The notes below the pieces were generated by a model. The model did no database searches. It saw only the letters and a list, made by a program, of their open reading frames with translations, and was not told the origin of the DNA. DNA of 38,977 nucleotides, taken from IMG/VR virus record IMGVR_UViG_3300045988_170240. One strand, written 5' to 3'. The translations under genes were made by a program, and so were the position numbers. This stretch comes from a virus. Below, one piece after another: positions 5,529-25,450 of this stretch (positions within the stretch are counted from its first letter, which is position 1; the number at the start of each line of letters is the position of its first letter).

Positions 5529-7199
5529 ATGACAGTAGGTCGTTCCACAGAGGCCTCTCAGCGAGAGCGGGATGAAGTCAAGCGTATCATTAAGCGCTTA
5601 GACCAGCTCAAGTCTGATAGGGCGAATTTTGAAGCTCACTGGCAAAAAATTGCCAAAGTAGTGATGCCTTTTGATATGTCCTTTCTCTCGCAGTATCAGA
5701 CTGAGGGAGTGGACACTGACCCTCGTGTGTACGACTCGACTGGTATTCACTCCAATGAGCTGTTGGCATCAGGCTTTTATTCTTTGTTGACAAACCCTGC
5801 ATCGCCCTGGTTTGACCTGAGTGTAGCCAATCAGAAACTGGCAAATAACTCGGCAGTCAAAAGATGGTTGGCAGATGTAACGCGCATCATGGCCTATGAA
5901 ATTCAGCGTCCTCAGTCGGGCTTTACTACTTCTCTTCATGAAGGGTATCGCTCATATGGCGCGTATGGCAACATGTGCATGTTTGTCACAGAGAAAAAGG
6001 ACCTGACTGGGCTTCAAATCAATTCTCTGCCTCTCTCTGAATGCTATTTTGCAGAGAACGCTGAGGGGCAGATAGGATCGCTCTACCGAGTATACAGACG
6101 CACCGTCCTTCAATTGGTCGAGGCGTTCGATAAGGCTAACCTGCATCCGGAGATCGTTAAGGCGTATGATGATGGGGAACTGAGCACCAAGTTTGAGATC
6201 CTCCATGTGGTGGCTCCGAACATTGAAGCAGACCCCCTCAGCATCAAAGCAGCCAAGGCCATGCCTTACAAATCCACGTATGTGGACACGAAGCATGGAC
6301 TTGTCATTCAGGAATCGGGATACAATGAACGTCCTTTCATGGCAGCAAGATTCTATAAAGCATCACATGAGACGTATGGTCGTGGCCCAGGTTCCAATGC
6401 TCTTCCCGATCTCCGGATGCTGCAGCAGATAGTTTCGACTAATCTGCGTGCGGCACAGAAAATGATTGATCCGGCTCTTATGATTCCGGACCAGGGTTTT
6501 GTGTCACCCATCTCGACCAAGCCTGCGGCGATTAACTATTATCGTACCGGCTCCATGGATCCTAAGGGCGTAGTTTCTATGCAAACAGGTGGACGCCCTG
6601 ATCTTGGTCTTGATATCATTAAAGACCTTCAGATGCGCATTCGGGAAATCTTCTTTGTGGACCAGCTTCAGCTGAACACAGGACCCCAGATGACGGCTAC
6701 TGAGGTTATGCAGAGAACTGAAGAGAAGCTTCGTCTTATGGGCCCGGTTGTGGGCCGTGCTGAGAATGAGCTTCTCTCGCCTCTGATCATTCGGTGTTTT
6801 GGTATTCTTATGAGAGCAGGCAAATTTGATACTCCTCCTGAGGAGTTGATGCAGCCTGGTGTGAAACTGCAGATTGTGTATACATCGCCCATTGCAAAAG
6901 CTCAGCAACAGGTTGAGGCTAATAACCTTACCAGAGCTATGCAAGTTCTTACTCCGTTCCTGTCATTTGATCCTGCCGCAATGGATAAGTTCAATACTGA
7001 CAAGACTGTGGAAGGCGTGTGCGATATGTATTCAATCAATCCTGAATACTTGCGAGATGATTCTGAAACTGCAGAAGTCCGGCAAGCTAGAGCAGAAGCT
7101 CAGCAGCAGGCTCAAATGGCAGAGCAAATCAAGAACGCAGGTATCGGTATGAATAACATCGCCTCGGGTATGGATACCTTAGGCCAGATGGAGCAGTAA
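5529..7199 (+). CDS. Portal (head-tail connector) protein (556 aa)
   Basis: Size and position between terminase and scaffold/capsid; Gln-rich C-terminus. Confidence 0.6.
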   Translation: MTVGRSTEASQRERDEVKRIIKRLDQLKSDRANFEAHWQKIAKVVMPFDMSFLSQYQTEGVDTDPRVYDSTGIHSNELLASGFYSLLTNPASPWFDLSVANQKLANNSAVKRWLADVTRIMAYEIQRPQSGFTTSLHEGYRSYGAYGNMCMFVTEKKDLTGLQINSLPLSECYFAENAEGQIGSLYRVYRRTVLQLVEAFDKANLHPEIVKAYDDGELSTKFEILHVVAPNIEADPLSIKAAKAMPYKSTYVDTKHGLVIQESGYNERPFMAARFYKASHETYGRGPGSNALPDLRMLQQIVSTNLRAAQKMIDPALMIPDQGFVSPISTKPAAINYYRTGSMDPKGVVSMQTGGRPDLGLDIIKDLQMRIREIFFVDQLQLNTGPQMTATEVMQRTEEKLRLMGPVVGRAENELLSPLIIRCFGILMRAGKFDTPPEELMQPGVKLQIVYTSPIAKAQQQVEANNLTRAMQVLTPFLSFDPAAMDKFNTDKTVEGVCDMYSINPEYLRDDSETAEVRQARAEAQQQAQMAEQIKNAGIGMNNIASGMDTLGQMEQ

Positions 7200-7433
7200 A
7201 TGGCAGAACTCTCATTTGAACAGAGACAGGCCAAGCAAGCCGAGGTCATCCGGGCTTATAATCGGTTGTTTAATACGACCGATGGTAAGTTGGTTCTGGA
7301 AGACCTTAAACAGGCTCATTGGATTAACCGTCCCACGTTTGACGTTAACACAAACCTTATGAGCATGCGCGAAGGCGAGAGAAACGTGGTTCTCCGCATT
7401 ATGGCGCTTGTCGAAGATGGAAGGACCCTCTAA
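7200..7433 (+). CDS. Small hypothetical protein (77 aa)
   Basis: ORF tightly packed between portal and scaffold; start overlaps the portal stop. Confidence 0.45.
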   Translation: MAELSFEQRQAKQAEVIRAYNRLFNTTDGKLVLEDLKQAHWINRPTFDVNTNLMSMREGERNVVLRIMALVEDGRTL

Positions 7434-8335
7434 TGGATAATCCCACTCCGATTTCTGGCGGCGAAATTGCCGCTGGTGGATCCACCACTACTTCTCCGGC
7501 CCCTTCCCAGCCGGCTTCCCCGCCGCCAGCCCCCGCTGATGCTCCTAGCACTCAGGCTGGCAATCCTCCGGCCTCAGGGAGTTGGTTTGACCAGCTCTCT
7601 GAGGAACTGAAGGGAAGCAAGAGTCTGGCGAAGTTTAAGGACGTCAACAATCTTGCTCAGGCCTATGTTCATGCGGAATCGCTTATTGGACGCGATAAAA
7701 TTCCGGTACCGAAGACCGATGAAGACTGGCAAGACGTCTATAACCGCCTTGGGCGCCCTGCTACGCCTGATGATTATTCTCTCAATGCTGATGCTCTTAA
7801 GCAAATGCAGCTTCCTGAGGATATAGTATCAGTCCTGGAAGAGGACCTTAAATGGTTCAAGCCCACGGCGCACAATCTCGGTCTTAATGACCGACAGGCG
7901 ACGGCACTTATGCAGGCCTTTGTGGCTAACGTGAGTGAAACTATGTCTTCGAGAACTATGGACCAAGATACCGAACTGAAGCAGTGCGAAAATATGCTTC
8001 GTAAGGAATATGGTCAAGCGTACGACTCGAAGATTACCATTGCACAGCGTGCTCTGTTTACCCTGGGTGGCGAAAAGCTGGTTGACGAAGTGAACAAGAC
8101 GAGTCTGGGTCGCAACCCTGCATTCGTCAATATGTTCGTTCGTATTGGTGAACAGATGCATGAAGAACTCGGTTTGGATCTCGGTGGGCAACCGGATACC
8201 CCTGCAGATCTTGATTCTCAGATTCAGGAACTGCAGCGTCATCCGGCCTTCCTCGATTCGACTCACCCCGAGCATAAGTCTGTTGTTGACAGGATCCGCG
8301 TTCTGTTTGAACGTCGGTATCCCAATGGGTCGTGA
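7433..8335 (+). CDS. Putative scaffolding protein (300 aa), Pro/Ala-rich N-terminus, acidic
   Basis: Position immediately upstream of the major capsid gene; low-complexity acidic composition. Confidence 0.5.
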   Translation: MDNPTPISGGEIAAGGSTTTSPAPSQPASPPPAPADAPSTQAGNPPASGSWFDQLSEELKGSKSLAKFKDVNNLAQAYVHAESLIGRDKIPVPKTDEDWQDVYNRLGRPATPDDYSLNADALKQMQLPEDIVSVLEEDLKWFKPTAHNLGLNDRQATALMQAFVANVSETMSSRTMDQDTELKQCENMLRKEYGQAYDSKITIAQRALFTLGGEKLVDEVNKTSLGRNPAFVNMFVRIGEQMHEELGLDLGGQPDTPADLDSQIQELQRHPAFLDSTHPEHKSVVDRIRVLFERRYPNGS

Positions 8336-8397
8336 GTCGCCCATTGAATGAGGGCCCGAAAGGATAACCCCTCACTCAAACTTTATGGAGAAAACCA

Positions 8398-9261
8398 ATG
8401 AGTTTTCAGATTACTGAAGCCTTTGTGCAGCAGTACAACAGCACTGTGTCGCTGGTTTCCCAGCAGAAACAGTCGCGTCTGGAACCCGCTGTGCGCGTGG
8501 AAACCATCCGTGGCACGCGTGAAGCTTTCGATTCCATCGGTACTGTTGAAGCCCAGCCTCGTGGCGGTCGTCACGCTGACACCCCTCAGATGGACACTCC
8601 GCATATGCGCCGGTGGGTTACGTCTGCCCCGTACAACTGGGCGGACCTCGTCGACAAGCCCGACCGTCTGCGTATGCTGTATGATCCCACGTCACCCTAT
8701 GTGCAGAACGCCGTCATGGCCTTCAACCGCGCGAAAGACAAAATCATCATCAATGCCGCCTTTGCCCCTGTCTGGACGGGCGAACATGGCGATGTCCAGA
8801 AAACGTTCCCGACCAGCAACATCATCCCGCATAACAACACCGGTCTGACCATCGAAAAGCTTATTCAGGCCCGCGGCATGCTGTGGCGGAATGAAATCGA
8901 TGAAAGTGAACCCCTGTTCGCCGCCGTCACCAGCTTCCAGCTGGAAGACATGCTGAACAACACCAAGGTTCAGTCGGCTGACTACAACACCATCAAGGCC
9001 CTTGTACGCGGTGAAATCAATTCTTTTATGGGATTCACGTTCATCCGTACCGAGCAGCTTGAAAAGGACGGCGCGGCGCGTAAGTGCATCGTGTGGTCCA
9101 AGCCTGGTCTGCTCCTTGCCAAGGCGGAAGACATCACCACCAAGATCTCTGAACGTGGTGACAAGAACTACTCCACGCAGGTCTACGCTGAAATGGACCT
9201 CGGCGCGGTGCGTATGGAAGACGAAAAGGTCCTGCAGTTGCAGTGCAAGGAAGGTGCGTAA
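8398..9261 (+). CDS. Major capsid protein (287 aa)
   Basis: Position after the scaffold; strong RBS GGAGAAAACCAATG; overlaps the next gene start as TAATG. Confidence 0.6.
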   Translation: MSFQITEAFVQQYNSTVSLVSQQKQSRLEPAVRVETIRGTREAFDSIGTVEAQPRGGRHADTPQMDTPHMRRWVTSAPYNWADLVDKPDRLRMLYDPTSPYVQNAVMAFNRAKDKIIINAAFAPVWTGEHGDVQKTFPTSNIIPHNNTGLTIEKLIQARGMLWRNEIDESEPLFAAVTSFQLEDMLNNTKVQSADYNTIKALVRGEINSFMGFTFIRTEQLEKDGAARKCIVWSKPGLLLAKAEDITTKISERGDKNYSTQVYAEMDLGAVRMEDEKVLQLQCKEGA

Positions 9262-9692
9262 TGCAGTACTCCAACGTTGCTGGAAAGCAGAAGTCCAATG
9301 ACGTATACCGGTATCCGGCGGAACTGACCTCCGGCAAGGTACGTCGCCTGAAATTCGAAACTGTGACCGACGCGGCTGACACCGATATTACCATCGGGTT
9401 TTTGCCGTCCGGCACGACCAGTATTCTCGGCATTTCTCGTATGTCGGCGTCTGTCGCCACCACGGCGTCCATTGTCATTCCCGCCCATAAGTCCATGGGT
9501 GGAGAAGACGTAGCTGAGAAGACCATTCGTGCCGCAGCCACGGCTAACACTGCGGGCGGTGTGCCCATGACGGATACGCTTACCGGCGTGGATATCGATT
9601 CTCAGACTCAGGTCCCGGTTATTCTGAAGTTCTCGACCTCCGCTGCGAAGGGCACCAAGCTCGACGGCGAACTGTACTTCACCTACGAATAA
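9261..9692 (+). CDS. Putative minor capsid / decoration protein (143 aa, beta-rich)
   Basis: RBS AAGGAAGG; start overlaps the capsid stop; Thr/Ser/Ala-rich. Confidence 0.45.
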   Translation: MQYSNVAGKQKSNDVYRYPAELTSGKVRRLKFETVTDAADTDITIGFLPSGTTSILGISRMSASVATTASIVIPAHKSMGGEDVAEKTIRAAATANTAGGVPMTDTLTGVDIDSQTQVPVILKFSTSAAKGTKLDGELYFTYE

Positions 9693-9703: not shown

Positions 9704-10261
9704 ATGGCGTCCTCTATCGAAATTTGTAACGATGCATTGACTATGTTGAGTCAGGAACCTGTTATGGCTCTTGATGATACAACTAAGGCTTCTCGCCTGT
9801 GCAAGCAGCGTTATGAACCGGTACGGGACGCCTTGCTTCGCTCTTATCCGTGGTCCTTTGCCATGAAGCGGGAGATTCTTGCACGAGATCTCGAATCTCC
9901 CGCTTTTGGCTATGCCAACGCGTATTCTCTTCCTGTGGACTGCGTACGTGTAGTCAGCATCAATGATAGGACGCAAGAATGGCAGGTAGAAGGTCGTAAG
10001 GTCTTGACTAACGCTGACAGGGCGAATCTTCGATACATACGCAAGGTTGAAGATCCTAACGAAATGGATGCGATGTTCAGAGAGTGTTTGACACTCAAGT
10101 TGGCCGCTGATATGTGCATTTCGTTGACCAGCAATATTGATCTCAAGTCGATGTACGAACAACTTCTTGAGCGCAAGATCAATCTGGCCTATAATGCTTC
10201 TGCCATTGAGAGCACTCCTCCTGAGGTCATCGAAGGTAACTGGATTCTGTCGAGGTATTAA
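9704..10261 (+). CDS. Tail tubular protein A-like (185 aa)
   Basis: Position and size correspond to T7 gp11 in a T7-like structural order. Confidence 0.4.
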   Translation: MASSIEICNDALTMLSQEPVMALDDTTKASRLCKQRYEPVRDALLRSYPWSFAMKREILARDLESPAFGYANAYSLPVDCVRVVSINDRTQEWQVEGRKVLTNADRANLRYIRKVEDPNEMDAMFRECLTLKLAADMCISLTSNIDLKSMYEQLLERKINLAYNASAIESTPPEVIEGNWILSRY

Positions 10262-10263
10262 AC

Positions 10264-12066
10264 ATGCAGGACGCAATTCCAATTCAAGTATCATTCGCTT
10301 CCGGCGAACTTAGCCCACGGATGCATAATCGCATTGACGTGGATGCTTATTTTGCCGGTGCTGCTGAGATGCGTAACCTGATTGCACTCCCGCATGGACC
10401 AATGACTCGTAGGATGGGTTCACGATTCGTCATCAATTGTAAGAGTGAGAAAGTTAAACTCATTCCATTTAAATTTAGTACCAATCAATCGTTCATTCTT
10501 GAATTCGGTAAGACTGCGAATACTGGTTATGGTGGATATATGCGTGTCCATTATAACGGTGGTACAGTTGTAAATGACAATGGATCTATTTACGAACTGC
10601 CAACCTATTTTATTGATGATGCATGGTATGACCAGGTAACCTGGGCACAGTCCGGCGACGTATTGTGGTTGTGTTATTACAACTATTCACCCCAGCGCCT
10701 CATTCGTAAGGCAAATAATAACTGGGAATTGGATACTCCTATTGCTCATACGTCAGACAATGACCCAGTTCCGCCACAGTGGCAGAATTTTAACTGGCCA
10801 AGAGTTGTTGCGTATCATGAACAGCGTTTGGTCATGGGAAGTACTCCTGCACAACCATTGACATTGTGGTTTTCTGAGATCGGGGATACTACCCGATTCT
10901 ATCGTAATCGGGCTTCCTCTGACCCGGTTCTTGATACTGACCCGATGAACTATACCATGGCCACTGATATGGCAGATGGTATTAAATGGTTGCACTCTAC
11001 TGACGTACTTTTGTGCGGAACTGGTAGTGCAGAATACCGTATTGCGCCATCATCCTTGGGTGAAGCTCTTACACCGAGTAATATCAAGATTACAAAGCAG
11101 ACCAATTATGGTTCTATGGCTGCACAAGCTGTCCAATTGGGCTCATCTGTATTGTTCATTCAAAACAGTCGAGATCGTGTGCGTTCTCTTGATTACTCGG
11201 TTCTTGATAACCAGTTTGCAGCCACAGATTTGACTATCTTTGCAGACCACATTCTTAAAGGCAAAGTCAAAGATGTGGCATATATGAGCGCGCCAGACAC
11301 GTATTTGTGGTGTATTACTGATACTAATCAGTTGATTGGCATGACATATGAAAAGCAACAGAAAGTACTTGCTTGGCATGCCCATTCATTCGAAGCTCAG
11401 ACCCAATCTGGATATGAGAATGTCGAACTGAAGAGTATTAGTTGTATCCCTGGTCCTAATGGCGACCAACTATGGCTTGTTATTAAAAGAGGAAATCGTA
11501 CATCTACGATTGAGTATATTGACAAGATTGTTAATGAGTCACCAAATTTGAGTGTTGAGTCTTTTGCTGATGGTCAGGCAGTATATCAAGGTACTGCTAC
11601 TTCAACCATTACTGGTCTCAATCATTTAGAAGGACTTAAAGTTGCTCCTCTTATTAATGGATGGGTCCATCCTGAAGTGTATGTACAAAATGGCGCAATT
11701 ACGCTTAATCAAGCAGTAACTAACTGTGTCATTGGTGTTCCATATACTTCACGGTTTAAGTCTATGGTTATTCAGGCATCTGACCAGGTATCTACAGGAG
11801 CATCGAGAAAGATTGTTAGTGCTACATTCTCTTTGCTGAATTCTCTGGGATTGAGATTCGGCATTGAGGGCCAAAGCATGCAAGAGAAGTTCTTTGGCCC
11901 GACCAAAATTATGAATAAGGCACAGCAGTTGTTTACAGGAGATTTTACTGAGTCTGTAGCGTCTTCTAACAATGAAACGCAACAGCTCGTAATTGAACAC
12001 AAGACACCCTATCCTCTCATGGTTAGGGCCATTGTGTATCATATCAATCCGAGGCGGGTTAACTAA
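10264..12066 (+). CDS. Tail tubular protein B-like / tail protein (600 aa)
   Basis: Large ORF in the gp12 position. Confidence 0.4.
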   Translation: MQDAIPIQVSFASGELSPRMHNRIDVDAYFAGAAEMRNLIALPHGPMTRRMGSRFVINCKSEKVKLIPFKFSTNQSFILEFGKTANTGYGGYMRVHYNGGTVVNDNGSIYELPTYFIDDAWYDQVTWAQSGDVLWLCYYNYSPQRLIRKANNNWELDTPIAHTSDNDPVPPQWQNFNWPRVVAYHEQRLVMGSTPAQPLTLWFSEIGDTTRFYRNRASSDPVLDTDPMNYTMATDMADGIKWLHSTDVLLCGTGSAEYRIAPSSLGEALTPSNIKITKQTNYGSMAAQAVQLGSSVLFIQNSRDRVRSLDYSVLDNQFAATDLTIFADHILKGKVKDVAYMSAPDTYLWCITDTNQLIGMTYEKQQKVLAWHAHSFEAQTQSGYENVELKSISCIPGPNGDQLWLVIKRGNRTSTIEYIDKIVNESPNLSVESFADGQAVYQGTATSTITGLNHLEGLKVAPLINGWVHPEVYVQNGAITLNQAVTNCVIGVPYTSRFKSMVIQASDQVSTGASRKIVSATFSLLNSLGLRFGIEGQSMQEKFFGPTKIMNKAQQLFTGDFTESVASSNNETQQLVIEHKTPYPLMVRAIVYHINPRRVN

Positions 12067-12506
12067 TGAAGCCGATTTTCCGGGAAGTAAATCTGGCACA
12101 TCACATTGGTAGAGCGATTCATTTGATTGATGCGCACTGCCAAGAGGTAGTTGGACAGGGTAAGAAGTATAATCCAGACATTGATTATCTCTGTATGGGG
12201 TCAAATACTGGGTTACTGCATACGTTTGATATTGAGGACAATGACAAGGTAGTAGGATATGCGGTTTTTATGATCGCAAAAGATTTTATTACCAGTGAAC
12301 GGTCGGCGTCTAATGTGGCCATTTATGTGTCACCTGAATATAGAGGGCGTACAGCAGTTAGGTTTATGCAGTACACTGAAATGATGCTTTTGTCCAAGGG
12401 TATTAAGCAAATAAATTTTCATGTACCTCCGAGTTCTATGGCAGAAAAGTGCCTCGCTCATTTAGGGTACAATCTTCGTGAGAAGGTTTACTACAAAGAG
12501 TTCTAA
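12066..12506 (+). CDS. GNAT-family N-acetyltransferase (146 aa) in the internal-virion-protein (gp13-like) position
   Basis: GNAT motif-A-like YRGRTAVRF preceded by beta-strand VVGYAVFMIAKD and followed by an NFHV segment typical of the GNAT fold. Confidence 0.5.
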   Translation: MKPIFREVNLAHHIGRAIHLIDAHCQEVVGQGKKYNPDIDYLCMGSNTGLLHTFDIEDNDKVVGYAVFMIAKDFITSERSASNVAIYVSPEYRGRTAVRFMQYTEMMLLSKGIKQINFHVPPSSMAEKCLAHLGYNLREKVYYKEF

Positions 12507-12525
12507 AGCTCATTGGGAGTAGAAT

Positions 12526-13002
12526 ATGGCAATGTCCACCCTTGCTATGGCTGCAGTCGTAGGTTCCACACTTGTTGGAACTATCGGTTCTTTGCAGCAA
12601 GCTGAAGCACAATCTGCTGCGTATAAAGCCCAACAGGCGCAATCTCAGTATCAAGCAGAACTTTACGAGCTGAATTCGCGTAAAGAAGCGGCTAATATGG
12701 GTGTAGAAGCCACCAGACTGCAAGCTAAACAGATTGCTGCGGCATCTGCTAGCGGCTATGAACTTGACAGCGGTTCTTTTATGGACCTGGTTAATGAATC
12801 CGCGGAGAATGCCAAACTTGATCGTGAGGATGTTCTTCGTACAGGGCGTTTACAAGCTGAAGCCAAACGAGTTGAAGCAGATTCATATGGTAAAGCAGCA
12901 AAGGATTCTAAAACCGGTGGATGGGTTAACGCTGCAGCATCTTTGTTCAAGGGTACAACTAGTGGGTACCTGGTTGGTAATAAAGCAGGATGGTGGGACT
13001 AA
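12526..13002 (+). CDS. Internal virion protein (158 aa), hydrophobic N-terminus, Ala/Gln-rich
   Basis: ORF in the gp14-like position. Confidence 0.4.
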   Translation: MAMSTLAMAAVVGSTLVGTIGSLQQAEAQSAAYKAQQAQSQYQAELYELNSRKEAANMGVEATRLQAKQIAAASASGYELDSGSFMDLVNESAENAKLDREDVLRTGRLQAEAKRVEADSYGKAAKDSKTGGWVNAAASLFKGTTSGYLVGNKAGWWD

Positions 13003-14528
13003 TGGCTAAGGAAATTCCACGCTATTTTGGTGACCCACAAATTGACCAAGTTCCTGTAGGAGCAGTGCCTAGCGCTAGTGCTATGGCTGCTCCTGCCGAT
13101 GCAGAACGTTCATTCATTACTGGTCTTGGTAGGTTAATGGGTGCGGCAGACGATTTTGCTCAGACTTTTATGGACAAAATTGTCGAACGTCAAGCACGCG
13201 ATGCTGATATCGAGATGACCAAGTTGTTTCGTGACCGCGAAATGGAAATCCGCAAAACGAAACTTGGTGCCCAAACTGATGGTCTTCTGAATGCAGAAGA
13301 AGAGTGGTCTAATAAGACTGCTGGTGAGCTTCGCGAGAAGATGAAAGTACCTGGGTACATCTTTGATAAGCTGTGGCATAAGCATACGTCCAGTTATCTG
13401 AATGAAATGGGTACATATCAGATTCAACAGCAGACGATTGCTGATAAGCAGTCTCGTGCCGCATATGTTGATACCCTGAAAGACGGTCTTATTAGAACGC
13501 CATTAGGAGATGTTGATGCCCTCACAAGCTACTTCGAACAAGTTCGTAAGACATACCCTAATGATAACATTGCAGCTGAAAAAGCAATCGATGACGGTAT
13601 TCTTGTGGCGGTCCAATCGTGGGCTCGAGATAATCCGTCGGCAACTATCGCATGGTTTAGGCAAAACAAAAAAGACCTGGAGACTGTGGTCGGCCGTCAA
13701 ACCATTAAAATTGATACTATCATTCAGCAAGCTGAAAATCGCATACATGCAGAGGCTTCATACCGCAATTCGTTAGAATCGGTAGCATGGACGCGGGAAC
13801 AGCGAGCTCAGAAGCGTGCAGATAACGCAGCATTCAATGATTTCATTACTGACGCTATCAGTGGTGAAATGGATGATGCTAAGTTTTATGACTATATGGG
13901 TAACCAAGCCGTGTCTGGTGAAACTCGCAAAAACATGTACAGCTTTTTTAAAGGCATGGCTAAAGATGACATGTCTAAAATCAGCAAGGCTGTATATGGC
14001 GATCTTATGGTATCTGTCTATGAGAATCAGGCTGACGACCAATGGGTTGCTCGTGCTCAAAAAGCGGTAGCGGCAGGTCAGATTACTGGTACTGAATACA
14101 AGACGCTTCTTAATGCTCGTGATACTATTGCAAGCAAGATGGATACATCCATTAAACCTATGCTGACGGATGCATCGAAGTATATTAAGAACTTCATCAG
14201 TCCTAGTAATGGGCTTATGGGAAAAACCAATCCTGATGCTGAAAATAAGTATCTGAAAGTCAATCAAGCTTTGTATCGCGAGGCGCAAGGGAAGACGCCT
14301 GAGCAAGTGGCTAAACTGGTAGACTTCAATGACCCAGGTAGCTTCATCAATAAACTGATTGATGCGAACACAAGTGACAAGCCAAACTTTAGGGGTGCAA
14401 TGTCTGTACCTAAAACAAACTGGGTACCGACTATTCCGGAGAAAGGTACTCCAGTTATTTCACCTGATAAGGTCAGACAGCCTGGTGAGACTTTCTCTGA
14501 ATGGAAAAAGCGTACACAAGGGAAGTAA
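13002..14528 (+). CDS. Internal virion / ejection protein (508 aa from ATG 13002, which overlaps the upstream stop as TAATG)
   Basis: ORF in the gp15-like position. Confidence 0.4.
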   Translation: MAKEIPRYFGDPQIDQVPVGAVPSASAMAAPADAERSFITGLGRLMGAADDFAQTFMDKIVERQARDADIEMTKLFRDREMEIRKTKLGAQTDGLLNAEEEWSNKTAGELREKMKVPGYIFDKLWHKHTSSYLNEMGTYQIQQQTIADKQSRAAYVDTLKDGLIRTPLGDVDALTSYFEQVRKTYPNDNIAAEKAIDDGILVAVQSWARDNPSATIAWFRQNKKDLETVVGRQTIKIDTIIQQAENRIHAEASYRNSLESVAWTREQRAQKRADNAAFNDFITDAISGEMDDAKFYDYMGNQAVSGETRKNMYSFFKGMAKDDMSKISKAVYGDLMVSVYENQADDQWVARAQKAVAAGQITGTEYKTLLNARDTIASKMDTSIKPMLTDASKYIKNFISPSNGLMGKTNPDAENKYLKVNQALYREAQGKTPEQVAKLVDFNDPGSFINKLIDANTSDKPNFRGAMSVPKTNWVPTIPEKGTPVISPDKVRQPGETFSEWKKRTQGK

Positions 14529-14531
14529 ATT

Positions 14532-17500
14532 ATGGCATATACTCAGCAGACTAACGAAGCCCTGGCAGCAGGCTTTTCTCTGTCAGAGATTCGTGAACAG
14601 GCTAAGCGTGAAGCTGATGAAGCAATTCAGGCAGGCTTTACTGCTGATGAAGTCTATGAGGGCATCAAAACTGAGTATGGGTTTTCCTTAAAAGATGATC
14701 CTGCAGACCTTGAAGCAGCACAGGATTTTATAGAGGTTGCCACAGTAGATCCTGTATTGGCAGAGAAAGCCGATATGGAAGTTGCACAAGGTAATCCTCG
14801 TCCTGTAGTTGACTGGAAAGAAGCCGTACTTGCTGGGTATCAAAATTCTATCACTGGGTTAGCAGTTCGTGGTGAATTGCCAAATTTGGTCGTACCAGAG
14901 ACTGGAAGTGTTGCACAAAAAGTATTTGCGATGGCTGGTCAAGCTATTGGGGATATACCTGCTCTTGTTGTGGGTGGTGCTGCTGGTGCTACGACTGGCC
15001 CTGCCGCGCCCATAACATCTCCTGCAGCTGCGATGGGTCTTACTGAAGGCCTGCGTACATATATGACTGACATGTATCGTGAGGGTAAGGCAACAACTTG
15101 GACTGAAGTTGTTGACCGTACTCTCAATACTTTGTCATCTGCAGGTAAAGGCGCAGTCATTGGTGCAGCTACTGGTGGAGCAGGTAAATATACTGGTAAG
15201 TTCTTTTCTGAAGCCACTCCGGCTATGAAAACTACGGCGCAGTTATTTTCTGAAATCACCACCATGACTACTGCAGGTTCACTGATGGAAGGCAAAATGC
15301 CTACTGCTGAAGACTTCATGATTGCCAGTATGGGTTTAGGCGGAATGAAGGCTGCAGGTTTTTATTCGAATCGTCTTATGGGCGTATTTGAAGTTACCGG
15401 TAAAACGCCTGAAGCAGTACGCATCAATTCTATCATTGAACCTACTATCAGAGAAGACGTTGCATCTATTAATCTTGAGGTGCCCCGTGCCTATCGATCC
15501 TCGTATCGTCGAGTCTTCACTGAGGGAGTCAATCTTAATCCGGAATCTGCGCCTGCGGGAGTGTGGTATTCTACTAGCAAAAACGCGGCAGAAGCCGCAG
15601 CGAAGAAAACTGAAGGGGCGTCTGTACAAGAATATCAAGTCCACCGCAGCGTTCCAATGTTCCATTATACCGATGCGCGCGGCGCAAGGCTGTTCAAAGA
15701 ATTCCTGAAGACGCCCGAAGGCAAAGCTTCTATGGAGAAAATGGATCCTGAGTTCTTCCAGGAATATCCTAACTTTATTGAGAAGTATAAGAGCGTATCT
15801 CAGGAACGACTGATTCCCACATCTCGTAAGATGTTTGAGAATCCTACACCTGAATTTATTGAATGGTTATCATCTGACAAGTTGTCTCCTGAAGCTATTG
15901 AAACACTGGCTGGAGCAACTAAGGGTAAAAAGGTTCGCGAACTTACGCGTAACATCGAGGGCATTCAAATGGGCTCTCGTATGTTTATTTTCGACCAGAA
16001 AAAAGTATCGGCGGCAAAGGCTGCGCCTAAGGGTGAAATGCCCATAGACGCCGCTCAAGCTGAGTTGCGGCAGAATATTTCCTTGGGTGAAGAGAAAGGT
16101 ACTCGTACATGGTCGGAAATCAAGGATTCGACATACCAGTCATTGGTAGATAAATTTGCTCCTCTCAATACTGGAGCATCTCCGGGTAAAATGACTGAAT
16201 CTCGTGCTATGGCTTCGGCTCTTATGGGGTCGCCTAAAATGGCTATGCACTGGATTGAACATTCGCCATTTAAGTTTGGCAGTCGTGAGAACTTTGGCAT
16301 ACCTCTTGATAAGATAATTAAGGAAGCAGGTGATCCTCGTGGGTTATCTGAATACTTGATTGCTAAGCGTACCATGGAACTGTCTGAGCAAGGTGTAGAT
16401 ACGCGTATTAATCCGGAAGTAGCCTATTCTGTAGGTAAAAATCCGGAGAATGTTGCAAAGTATGACACTGCAGCACAGAAGATCTACGACTACAATAATA
16501 ACCTGCTCGATTACATGAAAGATGCAGGTCTTATCAGTGAACGCCAACTGCGTGACATCAAAGCGAAGAACAAGAAGTACGTTCCCCTTAACGAGGTTGT
16601 TACTGAATTTGAACCGTCATTTGGGGAAGACTTTGCTGCACCCAAGGCCGTCATTATTGACCCACTTGAGAGTGTAGTTCGGAATACCTTTAGTGTCATT
16701 CGAATGGCTGAGTCTAATGCGGTCAAGAAGCAGATTGCCAAGGACTTCGGTCAAGCTGTAGAAGTCAGTCAGCGTGAAAGTCCGCTGTCTCATGATGTAT
16801 CGCGTAAAACGCAGATTACTGTCAGAGAAAATGGTCGTAAGCGCGTATATGCTGTGCCTGAAGAAATTGCTAAGACTGCCAGACAACTGGATATGGATTC
16901 GGCACTCATTTATAATGGTATAATGAAAGGATTGACTGAGGTTGCATCTTGGACTCGTGCAGGTTCTATTACTACGCCTGAATTTGTTGTACGTAACTTG
17001 TTCCGTGACCAGTTTACTGCGGCCATTAGTAATCCAGGTTATATTTATGGATTGAGCGCACTGAAGGGCTTTACTTCGGTTATCAGTAAGCGAACTGGCG
17101 GACGACTCTTTCCCAAGATGGAACAGTATTATTGGGACTGGGCAAAGAACGGCGGTGGCAATGCATCTCTTGTAGCTCTTGACAGAAAGTTCACTCAGGA
17201 AATGATTACTGAGATGGCTAAAGTTCCTGCACGTAATTTGCTCAAGGACCCTGTCAAGAATTATAAAGAAGTCATCAGTATGATTAATCCGTTGAACCTT
17301 CGTAAGGCTCCGGGTATCGTTAAGAGAGCGCTGCAGAGTGCTACTGAGATGACTGATGAAGCCACACGCATTGGTGGGTTTATTGAAGATGTGAATCGTG
17401 GTATATCGCCTTTCGAAGCCGCAGTTAAGTCTAGAGATATTACTCAGGACTCTATGAGAATTGGAGCGGTTACTAAAGGATTCAATGCCATTACGGCATT

Positions 17501-18620
17501 CTTTAATGCCCAGGTTCAAGGTCTCGATAAAACCTATCGTATGGCTAAGGGTGACCCTATCAGGTTTATGTCAGGTGTGGGGGCAGGAATAGTTCTGCCA
17601 TCTTTGCTTCTGTCATTAGTTAATAATGACATTATGTACAATAGCCCTGACTCTGATACTGCTAAGGCATTGAGGAACGTACCGGACTGGCAGCGTGCTA
17701 CATGTTGGATTGTTCCTACTCCTTGGGCGGTATTGCGTATTCCTAAGCCCCAGGAATTGGCAGTAATTGCAGCAGCCCCAGTCGAAATGTTTGTTGACTG
17801 GGTATATGAAAACAAAGATAGAAGTCTCCTGCAGAAAATGTGGGATGACGGATTTTTTGACGCCGTTAGTGATCAGATTATACCTAGTGTTATGCCTTCA
17901 GCTATTGCACCTGTATATGAATCTGCGGCTAACTATAGTTTCTTTACCGGAAACCCCATTATTCCATCATTCATGGAAGATATGTTTCCGCAGACGCAAT
18001 ATAAGGCCAACACAACTGAGATTGCTAAGAGCCTGTCGCGTGTCCTCAATTATCTGGACCCTGTAGCAGAAACAGCAATTGGTAGACGTGCATCTTCTCC
18101 ACTTATTATGGAACATCTTGTGAGAGGATGGACGGGTCAGGTAGGACAATATGTCCTTTCTGCCTTGGATACTGCGGCGCAAGAAGCGGGAATTATAGAC
18201 AAAGTAGAACGCGCGGCGCCGACTCTTGCTGACTTACCAGTAGTTAAGTCGTTTGTTTTCAGATATCCTAGCGTGAGTGCTAAAGCAATTGAAGACTTTC
18301 AGACAAAGGCAGGTCGGCTTGAGAATCGTCTGAAGTCAGTAAATATGCTTATGAAAGAGGGTACTGGCGTTGCAGCAGCTATGGCTGAAGAGCTTATGAA
18401 TAGCGGACCTATGGGCCAGTTTACTGGTGTACGGTCTTCTCTAAATAACATGAGCAAAGCTGTCAGAATGATTCAGTTCAATGAAGATATGGATGCGGAT
18501 GAAAAGCGACAGCTAGTCGATCAGATTTATAGTGAAATGATCGATGTCGCAGAACAAGGTCTTCTTGTCATCGACGAGGTTAATAAGGCCTATAAGGAGG
18601 TGAAGAATGCTGATAAGTAA
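14532..18620 (+). CDS. Large internal virion / ejectosome protein (1362 aa)
   Basis: ORF of gp16-like size immediately before the tail-fibre genes. Confidence 0.5.
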   Translation: MAYTQQTNEALAAGFSLSEIREQAKREADEAIQAGFTADEVYEGIKTEYGFSLKDDPADLEAAQDFIEVATVDPVLAEKADMEVAQGNPRPVVDWKEAVLAGYQNSITGLAVRGELPNLVVPETGSVAQKVFAMAGQAIGDIPALVVGGAAGATTGPAAPITSPAAAMGLTEGLRTYMTDMYREGKATTWTEVVDRTLNTLSSAGKGAVIGAATGGAGKYTGKFFSEATPAMKTTAQLFSEITTMTTAGSLMEGKMPTAEDFMIASMGLGGMKAAGFYSNRLMGVFEVTGKTPEAVRINSIIEPTIREDVASINLEVPRAYRSSYRRVFTEGVNLNPESAPAGVWYSTSKNAAEAAAKKTEGASVQEYQVHRSVPMFHYTDARGARLFKEFLKTPEGKASMEKMDPEFFQEYPNFIEKYKSVSQERLIPTSRKMFENPTPEFIEWLSSDKLSPEAIETLAGATKGKKVRELTRNIEGIQMGSRMFIFDQKKVSAAKAAPKGEMPIDAAQAELRQNISLGEEKGTRTWSEIKDSTYQSLVDKFAPLNTGASPGKMTESRAMASALMGSPKMAMHWIEHSPFKFGSRENFGIPLDKIIKEAGDPRGLSEYLIAKRTMELSEQGVDTRINPEVAYSVGKNPENVAKYDTAAQKIYDYNNNLLDYMKDAGLISERQLRDIKAKNKKYVPLNEVVTEFEPSFGEDFAAPKAVIIDPLESVVRNTFSVIRMAESNAVKKQIAKDFGQAVEVSQRESPLSHDVSRKTQITVRENGRKRVYAVPEEIAKTARQLDMDSALIYNGIMKGLTEVASWTRAGSITTPEFVVRNLFRDQFTAAISNPGYIYGLSALKGFTSVISKRTGGRLFPKMEQYYWDWAKNGGGNASLVALDRKFTQEMITEMAKVPARNLLKDPVKNYKEVISMINPLNLRKAPGIVKRALQSATEMTDEATRIGGFIEDVNRGISPFEAAVKSRDITQDSMRIGAVTKGFNAITAFFNAQVQGLDKTYRMAKGDPIRFMSGVGAGIVLPSLLLSLVNNDIMYNSPDSDTAKALRNVPDWQRATCWIVPTPWAVLRIPKPQELAVIAAAPVEMFVDWVYENKDRSLLQKMWDDGFFDAVSDQIIPSVMPSAIAPVYESAANYSFFTGNPIIPSFMEDMFPQTQYKANTTEIAKSLSRVLNYLDPVAETAIGRRASSPLIMEHLVRGWTGQVGQYVLSALDTAAQEAGIIDKVERAAPTLADLPVVKSFVFRYPSVSAKAIEDFQTKAGRLENRLKSVNMLMKEGTGVAAAMAEELMNSGPMGQFTGVRSSLNNMSKAVRMIQFNEDMDADEKRQLVDQIYSEMIDVAEQGLLVIDEVNKAYKEVKNADK

Positions 18621-21634: not shown

Positions 21635-21752
21635 TTAAATATTCTCTACGAGAAATGTCTGAGAAAAATAATGTACAAATCCCAGACATTGTGGTATTAT
21701 ACTAACAATGTCTGGGCTATCCCATAACCCTGTAACATGTAGGAGGTTTGTA

Positions 21753-22685
21753 ATGTTCAAGTATGCACCGGGTATGGAATCCGGTCTTGGCGCGACTCTT
21801 AACATGATGCGTAAGCATGCGGAGCCCGATGGTGACGAGGGAACTACTGTTACCAACATTTTTAACATGGAAGACAAGGAGTCTGGTATAAACGACATCG
21901 CTGGCCTTATGGCACTCATGCAGAACAACAAGGGTATGGACCTTCCCGGCATTCTCGCGCTTTGTCAGCAGAAGGGCTACGGCCGTGAAGGCGGCGGTTG
22001 GGGCGACGGCATGGGTCTGCTCGTCATCCTGTTGTTCTTCCTCATGTTCAACAACGGTGGTTGGGGCAATAATGGCAACAAGGCCTGTGCTGAAGGTCTG
22101 GTCGGCGCCGATAACTGCCAGCGTATCATTGGTCTGTATGACCGCATTTCCGCCGCTCAGGCTGCAAGCACTCAGGGCTTCTTCCAGCTCGACACCAAGC
22201 TGTGTTCGTCCATTGCCGAAGTCATCGCGTCCGTGCGCAACCAGGGTGACCGCACCTACGATGCCACGCGCAACGTGGGCGACGCCGTGCGCGATTGCTG
22301 CTGCAAGGTTGAAGCACAGCTTGCTACCGTATTGTGCGAAATCCGTGGTGTCCAGCGTGATATCCGCGAATCCTCCGGCCTCATCAACGCCAAGATTGAG
22401 CTTGAAGCCCTGAAGGCTGAAAATGCCCGTGCCGCTATGGAATGCCGCCTTGTGCAGGCCCAGAAGGACTGCTGCTGCGAAATGAACCAGCGGTTTGACC
22501 GCCTCGATTGCAAGCTGGACAACATGCAGCGTGACAGCGAAATTGCTCGCCTGACGCGCGAAAATGAAGCGCTCAAGAACAAGGCCATTGCCGATTCCAC
22601 GGCCGCCTCGGTTGTGCAGTCCCTGCAGGACTTCGCCATCAGCCACTATAAGCCCACTCAGACTGCTACGGCTCCGACCGCGTAA
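21753..22685 (+). CDS. Membrane-anchored coiled-coil protein (310 aa) with two D-C-C-C motifs
   Basis: RBS AGGAGG before ATG 21753; central hydrophobic segment GMGLLVILLFFLMFNNGGWG; C-terminal coiled-coil repeats each containing a DCCCK/DCCCE motif. Confidence 0.5.
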   Translation: MFKYAPGMESGLGATLNMMRKHAEPDGDEGTTVTNIFNMEDKESGINDIAGLMALMQNNKGMDLPGILALCQQKGYGREGGGWGDGMGLLVILLFFLMFNNGGWGNNGNKACAEGLVGADNCQRIIGLYDRISAAQAASTQGFFQLDTKLCSSIAEVIASVRNQGDRTYDATRNVGDAVRDCCCKVEAQLATVLCEIRGVQRDIRESSGLINAKIELEALKAENARAAMECRLVQAQKDCCCEMNQRFDRLDCKLDNMQRDSEIARLTRENEALKNKAIADSTAASVVQSLQDFAISHYKPTQTATAPTA

Positions 22686-22697
22686 GGGAGGTAGCCA

Positions 22698-23300
22698 ATG
22701 GCAGAAGATCAGGGGTATCGGGGACCTTTTGCTCCGACGAGTCCTGCTCCTAAGCAGGGCTTCGCACACAATGAGGAATCCTCCCATGAACGTAGGAAGG
22801 AATACCGTGATCAGGGCTCGTTGTTTACGTATGTCCCGAATGGCGGTGAAGTAGAACCCCAACACCAACACCATGACCGTGAACGTGAACATGACCGTCG
22901 CGATGATCGCAGAGATGAACGTCGCAACGACCGTTATGATGATCGCCGTGATTGGAACCAAGACCGGTATTCGGAAAGGTCTGAACATCCGTTCAAGGAA
23001 CTGATGGGCATAGTGCGACCCCTTATCAAGGACTTGAGAGAGTCCTATGGTAAAAAGAATGAATACGCCAACGAAAAGGGATTCGACGATATTGAACGTA
23101 TCGAAGATGAACTTGAAGGTTGGTTGGGGTACCGAGATCTGGCGAAAAAGGATCCGCGTTACAAGCATGTGTCGAAGCAGGAATTCGGCCATATGCTTCT
23201 CGCAATTCAGGATCTCCTTCAATACATTTACGAGGAAACTCGTGAAAATCCTGAAGAACACCAGGAACTGTACAACTTCATTCACATGATTAAGGGGTAA
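22698..23300 (+). CDS. Highly charged protein (200 aa) with an RD/RE dipeptide repeat tract (HDREREHDRRDDRRDERRNDRYDDRRD)
   Basis: RBS AAGGGAGG; low-complexity Arg/Asp repeat read in translation. Confidence 0.5.
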   Translation: MAEDQGYRGPFAPTSPAPKQGFAHNEESSHERRKEYRDQGSLFTYVPNGGEVEPQHQHHDREREHDRRDDRRDERRNDRYDDRRDWNQDRYSERSEHPFKELMGIVRPLIKDLRESYGKKNEYANEKGFDDIERIEDELEGWLGYRDLAKKDPRYKHVSKQEFGHMLLAIQDLLQYIYEETRENPEEHQELYNFIHMIKG

Positions 23301-23303
23301 GTG

Positions 23304-23750
23304 ATGGAATGGCCCAGACAGCTGCTCGATAAGGTGGAAGAGTTTGAAGGCTTCAGTGAAAAGCCATATATCTGTCCAGCCGGATATTGGACTATCGGCT
23401 TTGGCACTCTCTGTGATAAATCGCATGCTCCTGTGACCAGAGAAGAAGCCGAGGCCTTGCTCATTGAAGAGCTGGACAGATGTTATAATGAAGCACTCAT
23501 CCAGTGCTCAGTGCTTCGCAAAGAGCCTGCTCATCGCGCTCAGGCTATTGCGGTATGGATGCACAATCTTGGCTCTGGAGCTTTTGCCTCTTCCACTTTC
23601 AAAAAGAAGGTGAATGCAAAAGAATGGTATGATGCCGCTCGTGAAATGATTCGTTGGACTAAGGCCACAGTGAAAGGCCAAAAGGTCGAACTTGGTGGGC
23701 TGGTTCGGCGGAGATTTTACGAGGCAAGCGTCTTCCTGAATGGTGCGTAA
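23304..23750 (+). CDS. Endolysin, T4-lysozyme-like GH24 muramidase (148 aa from ATG 23304; the track start 23301 is GTG)
   Basis: N-terminal catalytic region EFEGFSEKPYICPAGYWTIGFGT typical of phage lysozymes. Confidence 0.8.
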   Translation: MEWPRQLLDKVEEFEGFSEKPYICPAGYWTIGFGTLCDKSHAPVTREEAEALLIEELDRCYNEALIQCSVLRKEPAHRAQAIAVWMHNLGSGAFASSTFKKKVNAKEWYDAAREMIRWTKATVKGQKVELGGLVRRRFYEASVFLNGA

Positions 23751-24111
23751 AATGAGTATCCATGATATCTCAATAGATACATGGTTAGTCATTTGTAACA
23801 TTGTCTGGGCGCTAGTTGTCTGGGCCATGAAACGCGAGGTCATTATCATAAAAAGTGACCTCATAACTAAAGACGAGTTTGATTCTTATACGTCATTTGA
23901 AGATGCTGAACGTGAATCCTTAAGAAAGGATATGCACGCAATGGAAATAGAAGCTGCTCGAACTAAGGCGATTCTCGAGCAGCTTCCAACCAAGGATGAT
24001 ATTATAGATATCCAGACTCGTTTGCAAACTCTTTCAGAGCATTTAACAGTTGTTGCTGCGTCGTGTCCTTCCGAGTTAAGGTGCTCAGCACGCGATCATC
24101 AACGGTCTTAG
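23740..24111 (+). CDS. Lysis-associated membrane protein: N-terminal TM helix plus charged coiled-coil (i-spanin-like or holin-like), 123 aa
   Basis: TM segment TWLVICNIVWALVVWAM followed by a charged helical region and a C-terminal Cys pair; overlaps the lysozyme stop. Confidence 0.45.
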   Translation: MVRKMSIHDISIDTWLVICNIVWALVVWAMKREVIIIKSDLITKDEFDSYTSFEDAERESLRKDMHAMEIEAARTKAILEQLPTKDDIIDIQTRLQTLSEHLTVVAASCPSELRCSARDHQRS

Positions 24112-25333: not shown

Positions 25334-25363
25334 AGTGCTTAACTCATTGGTATATATGACAAA

Positions 25364-25450
25364 CTCTATAGAACTCTTCTCAATTTTCACGCGATACAAT
25401 ATTCACGCTTTTCATTTTAAAGAGTTCTATAGAGTTCTATAATTAGTTCA
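25364..25450. promoter_or_regulatory. Second cluster of the AGTTCTATAG-family motif (ctctatagaactc 25364-25376; tandem agagttctat x2 then aattagttca at 25421-25450) between the 118-aa gene and the SNF2 helicase
   Basis: Read directly; same motif family as 2721-2995 and 471-483. Confidence 0.55.

Follow-up and report, generated by a model that had tools for sequence, protein, structure and literature searches.

The stretch of DNA analyzed here, referred to as the window, comprises 38,977 nucleotides of IMG/VR virus record IMGVR_UViG_3300045988_170240, and the gene of interest lies within its structural module (Table 1). Upstream of this gene, the tubular-tail-A-like gene has tblastn matches to the tubular-tail-A genes of HTVC024P, DU_RP_II, phiV10 and BPP-1, and the tubular-tail-B-like gene matches 197 phage records, including the "tail tubular B" gene of Pelagibacter phage HTVC024P, Bbp13 of BPP-1 and the tail protein of phiV10. 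Downstream, the small ejection protein is of the class of T7 gp14 and P22 gp7, the IVP-B proteins (IVP, internal virion protein), and has a hydrophobic N-terminus, MAMSTLAMAAVVG, which we compared with those of other IVP-B proteins. The gene at the IVP-C position, whose listed 512-aa product found no match in PHROG and Pfam searches, probably has its true start at the ATG at 13002; its homologue on contig L017 starts one base inside the IVP-B stop codon. The giant protein at the IVP-D position carries a Pfam LPD38 domain (residues 1047-1224, E 3.5e-38). The order of the tubular-tail-B-like, GNAT and IVP-B-like genes matches that of T7, and the assignment of the ORF to the slot of T7 gp13 (IVP-A), made in a first-pass annotation of this DNA, is correct.

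Table 1. Coordinates of the GNAT-fold gene, its sequence features and its neighbors in the window
Feature	Position	Strand	Length	Description
Tubular-tail-A-like (adaptor) gene	9704..10261	+	185 aa	PHROG 394 "tail protein", E 1e-56
Tubular-tail-B-like (nozzle) gene	10264..12066	+	600 aa	PHROG 376, E 1e-145
TAATG stop/start overlap	12064..12068	+		Tail-gene TAA 12064-12066, GNAT ATG 12066-12068; read from the sequence
GNAT-fold ORF (IVP-A / gp13-position gene)	12066..12506	+	146 aa	ATG 12066, stop codon 12504-12506
Helix alpha1 residues H24-C-Q-E27	12135..12146	+		Pair conserved within the family, on the acceptor side
Motif-A region P90-E-Y-R93-G-R-T-A-V98	12333..12359	+		Beta4-alpha3 loop; conservation among relatives
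IVP-B-like small ejection protein	12526..13002	+	158 aa	PHROG 418 "internal virion protein", E 7e-20
Middle internal virion protein (IVP-C position)	12990..14528	+	512 aa as listed	Placed by synteny only
Giant internal virion protein (IVP-D position)	14532..18620	+	1362 aa	PHROG 9854, E 2e-92

The ORF is a genuine gene and evolves under purifying selection: its dN/dS ratio is 0.07 relative to a homologue with 88% identity, and the flanking genes have values of 0.035-0.07. Its start codon shares one base with the stop codon of the tubular-tail-B-like gene, and the identical one-base overlap is found on the homologous contigs L017 and L023. On the other side, 19 nt separate its stop codon from the start of the downstream gene, which has its own GGGAG Shine-Dalgarno sequence at 12515-12519; the two genes belong to one operon without overlapping. 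The translational coupling to both tail and core genes that had been proposed for this ORF therefore holds on the tail-gene side, whereas on the core-gene side the relation is one of a shared operon. Promoter-like and terminator-like sites in a scan of the 9-19 kb region did not exceed the shuffled expectation, and accordingly nothing points to a transcription unit of its own for this gene. A megablast search of the same region against GenBank phages returned zero matches, so that the GenBank phage collection holds no close cultured relative, and a search for the locus with the single GNAT protein retrieved identical copies only.

Both sequence profiles and the predicted fold place the protein in the GNAT superfamily. 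It matches Pfam Acetyltransf_1 with 24.9 bits (gathering cut-off 20.7) and PHROG 1249 ("acetyltransferase") with an E-value of 5e-9; the search against GNAT families that had been suggested as a check thus gave an above-threshold match, and the reading of the 146-aa ORF as a GNAT was borne out. Nothing came near threshold in an NCBIfam scan, in which models of the RimI/RimJ/RimL type scored far below their cut-offs. Because phmmer with the single protein against the PDB gave only spurious WD40 repeat matches, a family profile was needed; built from 144 relatives, of which 110 individually match Acetyltransf_1, it matched solved GNATs among the PDB sequences (3jvn, E 2e-9; YpeA, E 6e-7). The AlphaFold2 model has a mean pLDDT of 96.1 and the order of secondary-structure elements expected for a GNAT (beta1-alpha1-alpha2-beta2-4-alpha3-beta5-alpha4-beta6). 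Its best Foldseek matches in the PDB are all GNATs, including AAC(3)-I and RimI 7n1l (E ~1e-9, TM 0.75-0.82), and matches in BFVD include the N-acetyltransferase of VpV262 (TM 0.89) and the GNAT of Roseobacter phage CRP-4. The closest solved structures are those of small-molecule and protein acetyltransferases, namely AAC(3), RimI and polyamine acetyltransferases; the N-alpha-acetyltransferases RimI, RimJ, RimL and Ard1, which like the window protein are small single-domain GNATs, are among the best structural matches (TM of at most 0.82, for 7n1l).

In GNATs, the loop between beta4 and alpha3 binds the pyrophosphate of CoA, and in the window protein this loop contains the sequence YRGRTAVRF (residues 92-100), described in the first-pass annotation as motif-A-like. 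The likeness is partial. R93 is present in all 147 aligned relatives and G94 is common (112/147), and position 97 is G, A or S in 122 of the 147, but position 96 is T, A or N and position 98 is V, I or L across the family, where canonical GNATs carry glycine. Since the two signature glycine positions of Q/R-x-x-G-x-G/A are thus occupied by T96 and V98, YRGRTAVRF is not a canonical motif. Outside the loop, H24 (115/147) and E27 (138/147) are conserved on a helix that spans residues 10-29 of the model, and E27, G64, Y65, A81 and G134 each occur in at least 90% of relatives. In an alignment made by eye with E. coli RimI, the positions that we take to be its catalytic Glu and Tyr are not conserved in the window protein, which presumably has no Tyr at the general-acid position.

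Proteins of the same family occupy the same slot in other phages. Proteins of Vibrio phage 1.293.O, Pseudomonas phage GP100 and the uncultured phage MW202796 score 108-147 bits with the family HMM, and in all three phages the GNAT gene lies between a gene at the tail or nozzle position and one for a small hydrophobic protein, which is followed by a giant protein. Vibrio phage ICP2 has the order gp9 (tail appendage), gp8 (acetyltransferase), gp7 and gp6 (internal virion protein), an arrangement also found in Pseudomonas phage PfAn1 and on metagenome contig L028, and an acetyltransferase is annotated at the equivalent slot in YA3 and vB_PaeM-G11. ICP2 gp8, 1.293.O gp14 and the GP100 protein (PHROG 1249), which represent the acetyltransferase in the IVP-A slot of the phiRIO-1/VpV262 homology group and the Zobellviridae, belong to the same sequence family as the window protein, with tblastn identities of 27-34%. 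The order of nozzle, GNAT, small hydrophobic and giant protein genes is shared with them, although the portal, capsid and tube proteins of these phages have no tblastn match to those of the window. The window protein therefore combines similarity to the family profile with a place in a podovirus morphogenesis module, and falls into a subfamily of IVP-A proteins with a canonical GNAT sequence. The slot is not universal, since it is empty in BPP-1, and some family members are encoded upstream of the portal gene rather than in the IVP-A slot.

This conservation of gene order bears on whether the gene might be a passenger in the structural operon, encoding a late, non-packaged enzyme of an "auxiliary metabolic" or anti-defence kind that would acetylate a metabolite or protein of the host, or an antibiotic-like molecule. 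Genome papers interpret the GNATs of CRP-4/5 (PMC6918029) and MEP301 (PMC8024684) in this way, and an enzyme of this kind would also suit the nature of the nearest solved structures given above. We consider such a role very unlikely, given that synteny with tail and ejection-protein genes persists where the structural proteins themselves no longer give a tblastn match, a pattern that one would not expect if the gene were a movable accessory, that the start codon overlaps the stop codon of the nozzle gene, and that T7 gene 13 is reported to be necessary for morphogenesis (PMC4819975).

By its structural proteins, the window is closest to Pelagibacter phage HTVC024P, Ralstonia phage DU_RP_II, BPP-1 and epsilon15-like phages. 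The slot proteins of HTVC024P, DU_RP_II and phiV10 are not matched by the family HMM, lack the Q/R-x-x-G-x-G/A motif, and resemble a diverged, gp13-like type. HTVC024P gp49 is annotated as "putative acetyltransferase", and the best PDB sequence match of its family is Ard1 (E 0.011); DU_RP_II p011 has a weak Acetyltransf_1 match; and phiV10p16, annotated as "internal virion protein" and with its gene immediately following a tubular-tail-B gene matched by that of the window, has a sub-threshold match to PF11090 (E 0.087) and none in a GNAT profile search. Comparison by hhalign of the window family with the HTVC024P gp49 family was not significant, and neither hhalign nor HMM searches linked it significantly to phiV10p16 or DU_RP_II p011. 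The IVP-A proteins of the P22 gp14 and epsilon15/phiV10 gp13-16 types are syntenic, lying ahead of the homologue of IVP-B (P22 gp7), but have no detected sequence link to the window protein.

The best-known occupant of the slot is T7 gp13 (PF11090 Phage_T7_Gp13, formerly DUF2833), which lies between tubular tail B (gp12) and IVP-B (gp14) and, with 138 aa, is similar in size to the window protein. The model of T7 gp13 (pLDDT 94) has only GNATs among its top PDB matches, with RimI structures (5isv, 2cnm; E 8e-6) and also 4pv6 among the best, so that by these models the two proteins appear to share the GNAT fold, with RimI among the best matches of both. Both also have a conserved Glu in helix alpha1 (E24 in T7 gp13, E27 in the window protein). 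They differ at motif A, which holds an invariant Arg in the window family and is not conserved in the gp13 family, where the equivalent loop (R70-L-S-G-K-A in T7) varies freely among close relatives; moreover, a promoter of its own precedes gene 13 in T7, whereas the window gene overlaps the preceding stop codon. At the level of sequence, we detected no relation: the Pfam scan of the window protein found no match to PF11090, the family HMM scored -1.1 bits against T7 gp13, and hhalign gave the window and gp13 families a probability below 1%. As the alignments of the gp13 and HTVC024P gp49 families are shallow (identities of at least 57-64%), these hhalign results are weak negative evidence. 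The link to T7 gp13 thus consists of fold, synteny and published HMM-HMM work, and because no homology to PF11090 or gp13 was detected, membership in the IVP-A class is positional and at the level of the fold rather than that of a sequence family.

That published work goes back to Hardies et al. (2016), who found by HHpred that T7 IVP-A and a syntenic small gene in many podoviruses match acetyltransferases (PMC4819975). The authors called the name of T7 IVP-A "a misnomer", as the protein is needed for morphogenesis and is absent from the virion, and stated that the syntenic acetyltransferase genes are nonstructural IVP assembly proteins; they assigned standard IVP-A homologues to epsilon15 and P22 and described an unrelated protein in place of IVP-A in phiRIO-1, PA11 and CW02. 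Bischoff et al. (2019) equated the GNAT of SIO1 and the cobavirus group with T7 gp13 (PMC6775973), and Hardies (2023) reported an IVPA gene homologous to P22 gene 14 (PMC10386132). A GNAT in this slot is therefore not the unusual find that it had first seemed, with two publications preceding it and T7 gp13 itself modeling as a GNAT. In the literature searched, we found no report of a biochemical function for T7 gp13 or P22 gp14. A P22 preprint with "four internal proteins" was considered as a report of ejected gp14 and set aside, as gp14 is never mentioned there.

The first-pass annotation had proposed a virion-packaged, injected effector, which would travel with the ejection proteins and acetylate a host defence or translation factor, or aminoacyl-tRNA. 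Injected phage enzymes exist, T4 Alt and the N4 virion RNA polymerase among them. The gene adjoins those of packaged and ejected proteins and is co-expressed with them, and the invariant motif-A Arg together with H24 and E27 on the acceptor side is as would be expected of an enzyme whose substrate is fixed. Nonetheless, some family members are encoded upstream of the portal gene, away from the ejection-protein genes, and no defence or toxin family was matched. Absence from virions has been measured for T7-like phages only: T7 IVP-A is reported not to be retained (PMC4819975), and gp14, gp15 and gp16 appear in the virion proteome of phiPsa17, a T7-like phage, from which gp13 is missing (PMC4517105). 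For the canonical-GNAT subfamily to which the window protein belongs, the nonstructural label is a statement by Hardies et al. Taken together, this makes an injected effector highly improbable. A role like that of toxins of the AtaT/TacT/ItaT type found no support either: PADLOC returned no match, Pfam and NCBIfam models for toxin functions were not matched, no toxin GNAT is named in the descriptions of the 50 top PDB matches, and, since the neighboring genes are all structural, there is no antitoxin-like partner. The suggested modification of a receptor or O-antigen fared no better, in that phage O-acetylases are Acyl_transf_3 membrane proteins (e.g., YA3 ORF20), and the 146-aa protein matched neither Acyl_transf_3 nor any Pfam or NCBIfam model for O-antigen functions.

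We therefore consider it likely that the ORF is the IVP-A gene of this phage, encoding a GNAT-fold assembly factor for the ejection proteins that is neither packaged nor injected. T7-, P22-, epsilon15- and SIO1-like podoviruses and the Zobellviridae have such a small GNAT-fold morphogenesis protein, IVP-A, encoded beside their ejection-protein genes. The window protein would be produced late, as would the nozzle and ejection proteins, and most likely acts within the infected cell to render the ejection proteins competent for incorporation; the finished virion most likely lacks it, and it would not be injected. By analogy, we infer that the window protein behaves like T7 IVP-A, with a role in morphogenesis and no place in the virion. 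Because a GNAT fold is the usual occupant of the gp13 slot, the feature is one that has already been described and not a new injected effector. As such it matters little, adding one uncultured podovirus to the published pattern in which the ejection-protein operon begins with a gene for a protein of acetyltransferase fold. For annotation, such genes should be labeled as IVP-A-like assembly proteins, and the names auxiliary metabolic gene, toxin and internal virion protein should be avoided.

What value remains lies in the question of what IVP-A does. For an assembly factor of this kind, we consider catalysis, in which an acetyl group passes from acetyl-CoA to an ejection protein or another substrate in phage assembly, and action solely as a GNAT-shaped chaperone to be about equally probable. 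A chaperone that keeps the GNAT shape, does not bind acetyl-CoA, and either binds the hydrophobic IVP-B or nucleates the core on the portal is plausible since T7 IVP-B is water-insoluble on its own (PMC8954989). The replacement of the motif-A glycines by T/A/N and V/I/L across the whole family points in the same direction, as do the variable loop of the gp13 family, the absence of the motif from the phiV10, HTVC024P and DU_RP_II slot proteins, and the substitution of an unrelated protein for IVP-A in phiRIO-1, PA11 and CW02 (PMC4819975). As the motif-A loop is not conserved in the gp13 family, a shared IVP-A role may not need acetyl-CoA at all. The by-eye alignment with RimI, which puts no Tyr at the general-acid position, likewise counts against catalysis. 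Against such a pseudoenzyme, R93 and G94 sit right at the start of the CoA-pyrophosphate loop with the conservation noted above, most family members still match Acetyltransf_1, and the family profile still matches active GNAT enzymes at E 2e-9, a degree of retention that would be unusual for a dead enzyme. On balance, loss of acetyl-CoA binding seems to us quite possible, if short of probable.

The stronger claim that IVP-A proteins with the canonical motif are working acetyltransferases, and that acetylation of an ejection protein is obligatory in core assembly, we regard as rather unlikely. If it were true, acetylation would constitute a post-translational modification checkpoint in podovirus morphogenesis, one that might later have been lost or replaced in lineages with a T7 gp13-type protein. 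Candidate targets would be the Ala or Ser N-terminus of IVP-B after removal of Met, or a lysine of the giant internal virion protein. A variant of this reading, in which a few copies of the GNAT are packaged and injected, is less likely still. A comparison of IVP-B N-termini between phages with a canonical GNAT and those with a gp13-type protein has no discriminating power here, because all begin with M-[A/S/V/C/G]. Compared with T7 gp13, the subfamily of the window protein has retained much more of the GNAT signature, so that cultured carriers such as ICP2, VpV262 or GP100 might serve better than T7 for asking whether IVP-A is an enzyme and what its substrate would be.

The 146-aa ORF that the first-pass annotation had read as a GNAT acetyltransferase holds that identity by sequence profile and by predicted structure. 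Its protein scores 24.9 bits against Acetyltransf_1 of Pfam (curated threshold 20.7) and has a second match in PHROG 1249 ("acetyltransferase", E 5e-9). Searched exhaustively with HMMER, a set of 1.84 billion representative proteins yielded 606 relatives with E <= 1e-3, almost all of them stand-alone proteins 130-165 aa long; 110 of 144 aligned relatives match Acetyltransf_1 singly, and the profile of these 144 finds solved GNAT enzymes (3jvn, E 2e-9; YpeA, E 6e-7). An AlphaFold2 model based on the relatives' alignment (pLDDT 96.1, pTM 0.88) has only GNATs as its best PDB matches, including AAC(3)-I and RimI 7n1l (E ~1e-9, TM 0.75-0.82), and its BFVD matches include the VpV262 N-acetyltransferase (TM 0.89) and a GNAT of Roseobacter phage CRP-4. 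Against an 88%-identical homologue, dN/dS of the gene is 0.07, and the tube and IVP-B genes on either side give 0.035-0.07 (IVP-A to IVP-D being the internal virion, or ejection, protein positions); purifying selection on the GNAT gene is thus as strong as on its neighbours.

The window is a podovirus genome. Its late block on the plus strand runs from terminase through T7-type portal, scaffold/protease-like gene, major capsid protein, tubular tail A and tubular tail B to the GNAT, an IVP-B-like gene, a 512-aa gene, a 1,362-aa gene (LPD38 domain), tail fibres and endolysin, while a replication block on the minus strand encodes helicase, ligase, family-A DNA polymerase, exonuclease and primase-helicase. 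The order tubular-tail-B-like, GNAT, IVP-B-like (PHROG 418), 512-aa, 1,362-aa parallels gp12, gp13, gp14, gp15, gp16 of T7, so that the proposed placement in the gp13 (IVP-A) slot was borne out, as was translational coupling to the preceding gene by a one-base overlap (see table). Downstream, 19 nt separate the GNAT stop from the next gene start, with a GGGAG Shine-Dalgarno at 12515-12519. The gene content includes no identified RNA polymerase, which makes the phage look unlike an autographivirus despite its T7-type tail and core module. Among GenBank phages, no nucleotide-level relative was found; metagenomes contain identical or near-identical contigs. At the protein level, the nearest counterparts of its portal, capsid and tube genes are those of Pelagibacter phage HTVC024P, Ralstonia phage DU_RP_II, BPP-1 and the epsilon15/phiV10 group.

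Features of the window discussed in the text
Feature	Position	Strand	Remarks
TAA stop of preceding 600-aa gene	12064-12066	+	from the sequence
GNAT ORF ATG	12066-12068	+	one base in common with upstream TAA
GNAT-fold ORF, 146 aa	12066-12506	+	from the ORF listing
Capsid gene stop; following gene ATG	9259-9261; 9261	+	ORF caller instead gives GTG 9243 (9243-9692)
IVP-B stop; following gene ATG	13000-13002; 13002	+	ORF caller instead gives 12990 (12990-14528)
1362-aa internal virion protein	14532-18620	+	LPD38 "large polyvalent protein associated" domain, residues 1047-1224
Endolysin	23301-23750	+	sole lysozyme-like gene found
569-aa ORF	21717-23426	-	no PHROG match; antisense to 21708-22685 (+, PHROG 16490) and 22698-23300 (+)
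Last plus-strand ORF; helicase gene	23740-24111; 24002-25399	+; -	3' ends overlap by ~110 nt

The "unusual" of the first-pass annotation does not hold for a GNAT in this slot. Several phages whose structural genes look unrelated carry the same sequence family there: Vibrio phage 1.293.O (head-closure gene, "acyl-CoA N-acyltransferase", TM-helix protein, ~4.5-kb gene of ~1,500 aa), Vibrio phage ICP2 (gp9 tail appendage, gp8 acetyltransferase, gp7, gp6 internal virion protein), Pseudomonas phages GP100 and PfAn1, uncultured phage MW202796 and the metagenome contig L028. The family HMM scores 108-147 bits on the 1.293.O, GP100 and MW202796 proteins. Arrangements of this kind are already published: T7 IVP-A "also matches as an acetyltransferase", as does the syntenic small gene of many podoviruses, with standard IVP-A homologues in epsilon15 and P22 (Hardies et al. 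2016, PMC4819975); IVPA has been equated with P22 gene 14 (Hardies et al. 2023, PMC10386132), and T7 gp13 with the GNAT found in the SIO1/cobavirus group (Bischoff et al. 2019, PMC6775973); the YA3 and vB_PaeM-G11 genome papers annotate an acetyltransferase in the same slot. T7 gp13 itself is a GNAT fold according to a model built via a 97%-identical homologue and 35 relatives (pLDDT 94), whose top PDB matches are all GNATs, E. coli RimI first (5isv, 2cnm; E 8e-6). In BPP-1 (6001-8753) no gene lies between the tubular-tail-B homologue Bbp13 and the IVP-B homologue Bbp12, and the IVP-A slot is therefore empty in at least one relative of the structural module.

One point goes beyond the existing literature, namely a mismatch between the slot protein and the structural genes. 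The latter group with phages whose slot protein is diverged and gp13-like (HTVC024P gp49, DU_RP_II p011, phiV10p16), whereas the slot protein belongs to the canonical-GNAT family (PHROG 1249) characteristic of Zobellviridae and of phages like VpV262. Either the phage may have kept an ancestral, canonical form, or lineages may have swapped the slot gene; profile comparisons of canonical-GNAT with gp13-type slot proteins, the latter in shallow alignments, gave no sequence link.

The ORF most likely encodes an IVP-A-type GNAT-fold assembly protein. Such a product would act late, absent from the virion or bound to it only in passing, and would render the ejection proteins fit to be assembled into the capsid core. 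The proposal that it is instead packaged and injected as an effector finds no support in our results, and the indirect evidence runs against it. T7 IVP-A is reported to be needed for morphogenesis and not retained in the virion, and the syntenic acetyltransferase genes are described as nonstructural (PMC4819975); the virion proteome of T7-like phiPsa17 contains gp6.7, gp7.3, gp8-12 and gp14-17 without gp13 (PMC4517105). The GNAT ORF matches no defence or toxin family. Moreover, a second conserved placement in the morphogenesis module has the family member immediately before the portal gene, with one small gene following it and the ejection-protein genes at a distance (Aeromonas phage MJG, Limnohabitans phage DC33 (PQ492659.1), metagenome contig L027 5001-5399); a general role in morphogenesis accounts for this better than one as cargo. 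We do not drop injection altogether but give it a low probability, since our literature search turned up no virion proteomics for a phage carrying exactly the canonical-GNAT subfamily. The DC33 record is assigned to Inoviridae, which must be wrong given its 39-kb genome and podovirus-type portal.

Catalysis is a separate matter: the assembly role may or may not involve it, at about even odds. The more specific reading, that this subfamily is enzymatically active and acetylates an ejection protein as a required step of core assembly, strikes us as rather unlikely. In favour of a live enzyme, the family is still clearly profile-similar to active GNATs; R93, with which the CoA-pyrophosphate loop begins, is invariant (147/147 relatives), G94 occurs in 76% and a small residue at position 97 in 83%, and strong conservation of E27 (138/147) and H24 (115/147) in helix alpha1 and of Y65 (142/147) suggests, from the alignment, a fixed acceptor site. 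Against this, the signature glycines of Q/R-x-x-G-x-G/A are replaced (T96 and V98 here; T/A/N and V/I/L family-wide), and a by-eye alignment to E. coli RimI places H119 and L130 where that enzyme has its catalytic Glu and Tyr. Within the T7 gp13 family, the equivalent loop (R-L-S-G-K-A in T7) is freely variable, even between members that share 57% identity or more; the motif is absent from the slot proteins of phiV10, HTVC024P and DU_RP_II, and phiRIO-1, PA11 and CW02 have swapped the slot protein for an unrelated one (PMC4819975). The role shared among podoviruses may thus be independent of acetyl-CoA, though this subfamily could still be using it. RimI/Ard1-type N-alpha-acetyltransferases recur among the best matches of the GNAT ORF protein, T7 gp13 and the HTVC024P gp49 family, and the IVP-B proteins compared all start M-[A/S/V/C/G]; both observations would fit an ejection protein acetylated at its N-terminus, and neither discriminates.

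None of the three putative ejection proteins has a muralytic domain by Pfam, and no tRNA gene was found in the window. The 143-aa post-capsid protein matches neither PHROG nor Pfam. The 569-aa ORF is probably a spurious long antisense ORF within the late operon. One-base stop/start overlaps like that at the GNAT form a chain, with gene starts backed by homologues, and gene calls on the homologous metagenome contig L017 (60-85% identical) show the same pattern. The late and replication blocks converge at about 24000-24110, and G+C is uneven along the genome, at ~0.41 over 1-4 kb and 24-28 kb and 0.54 over the capsid region (8-10 kb).
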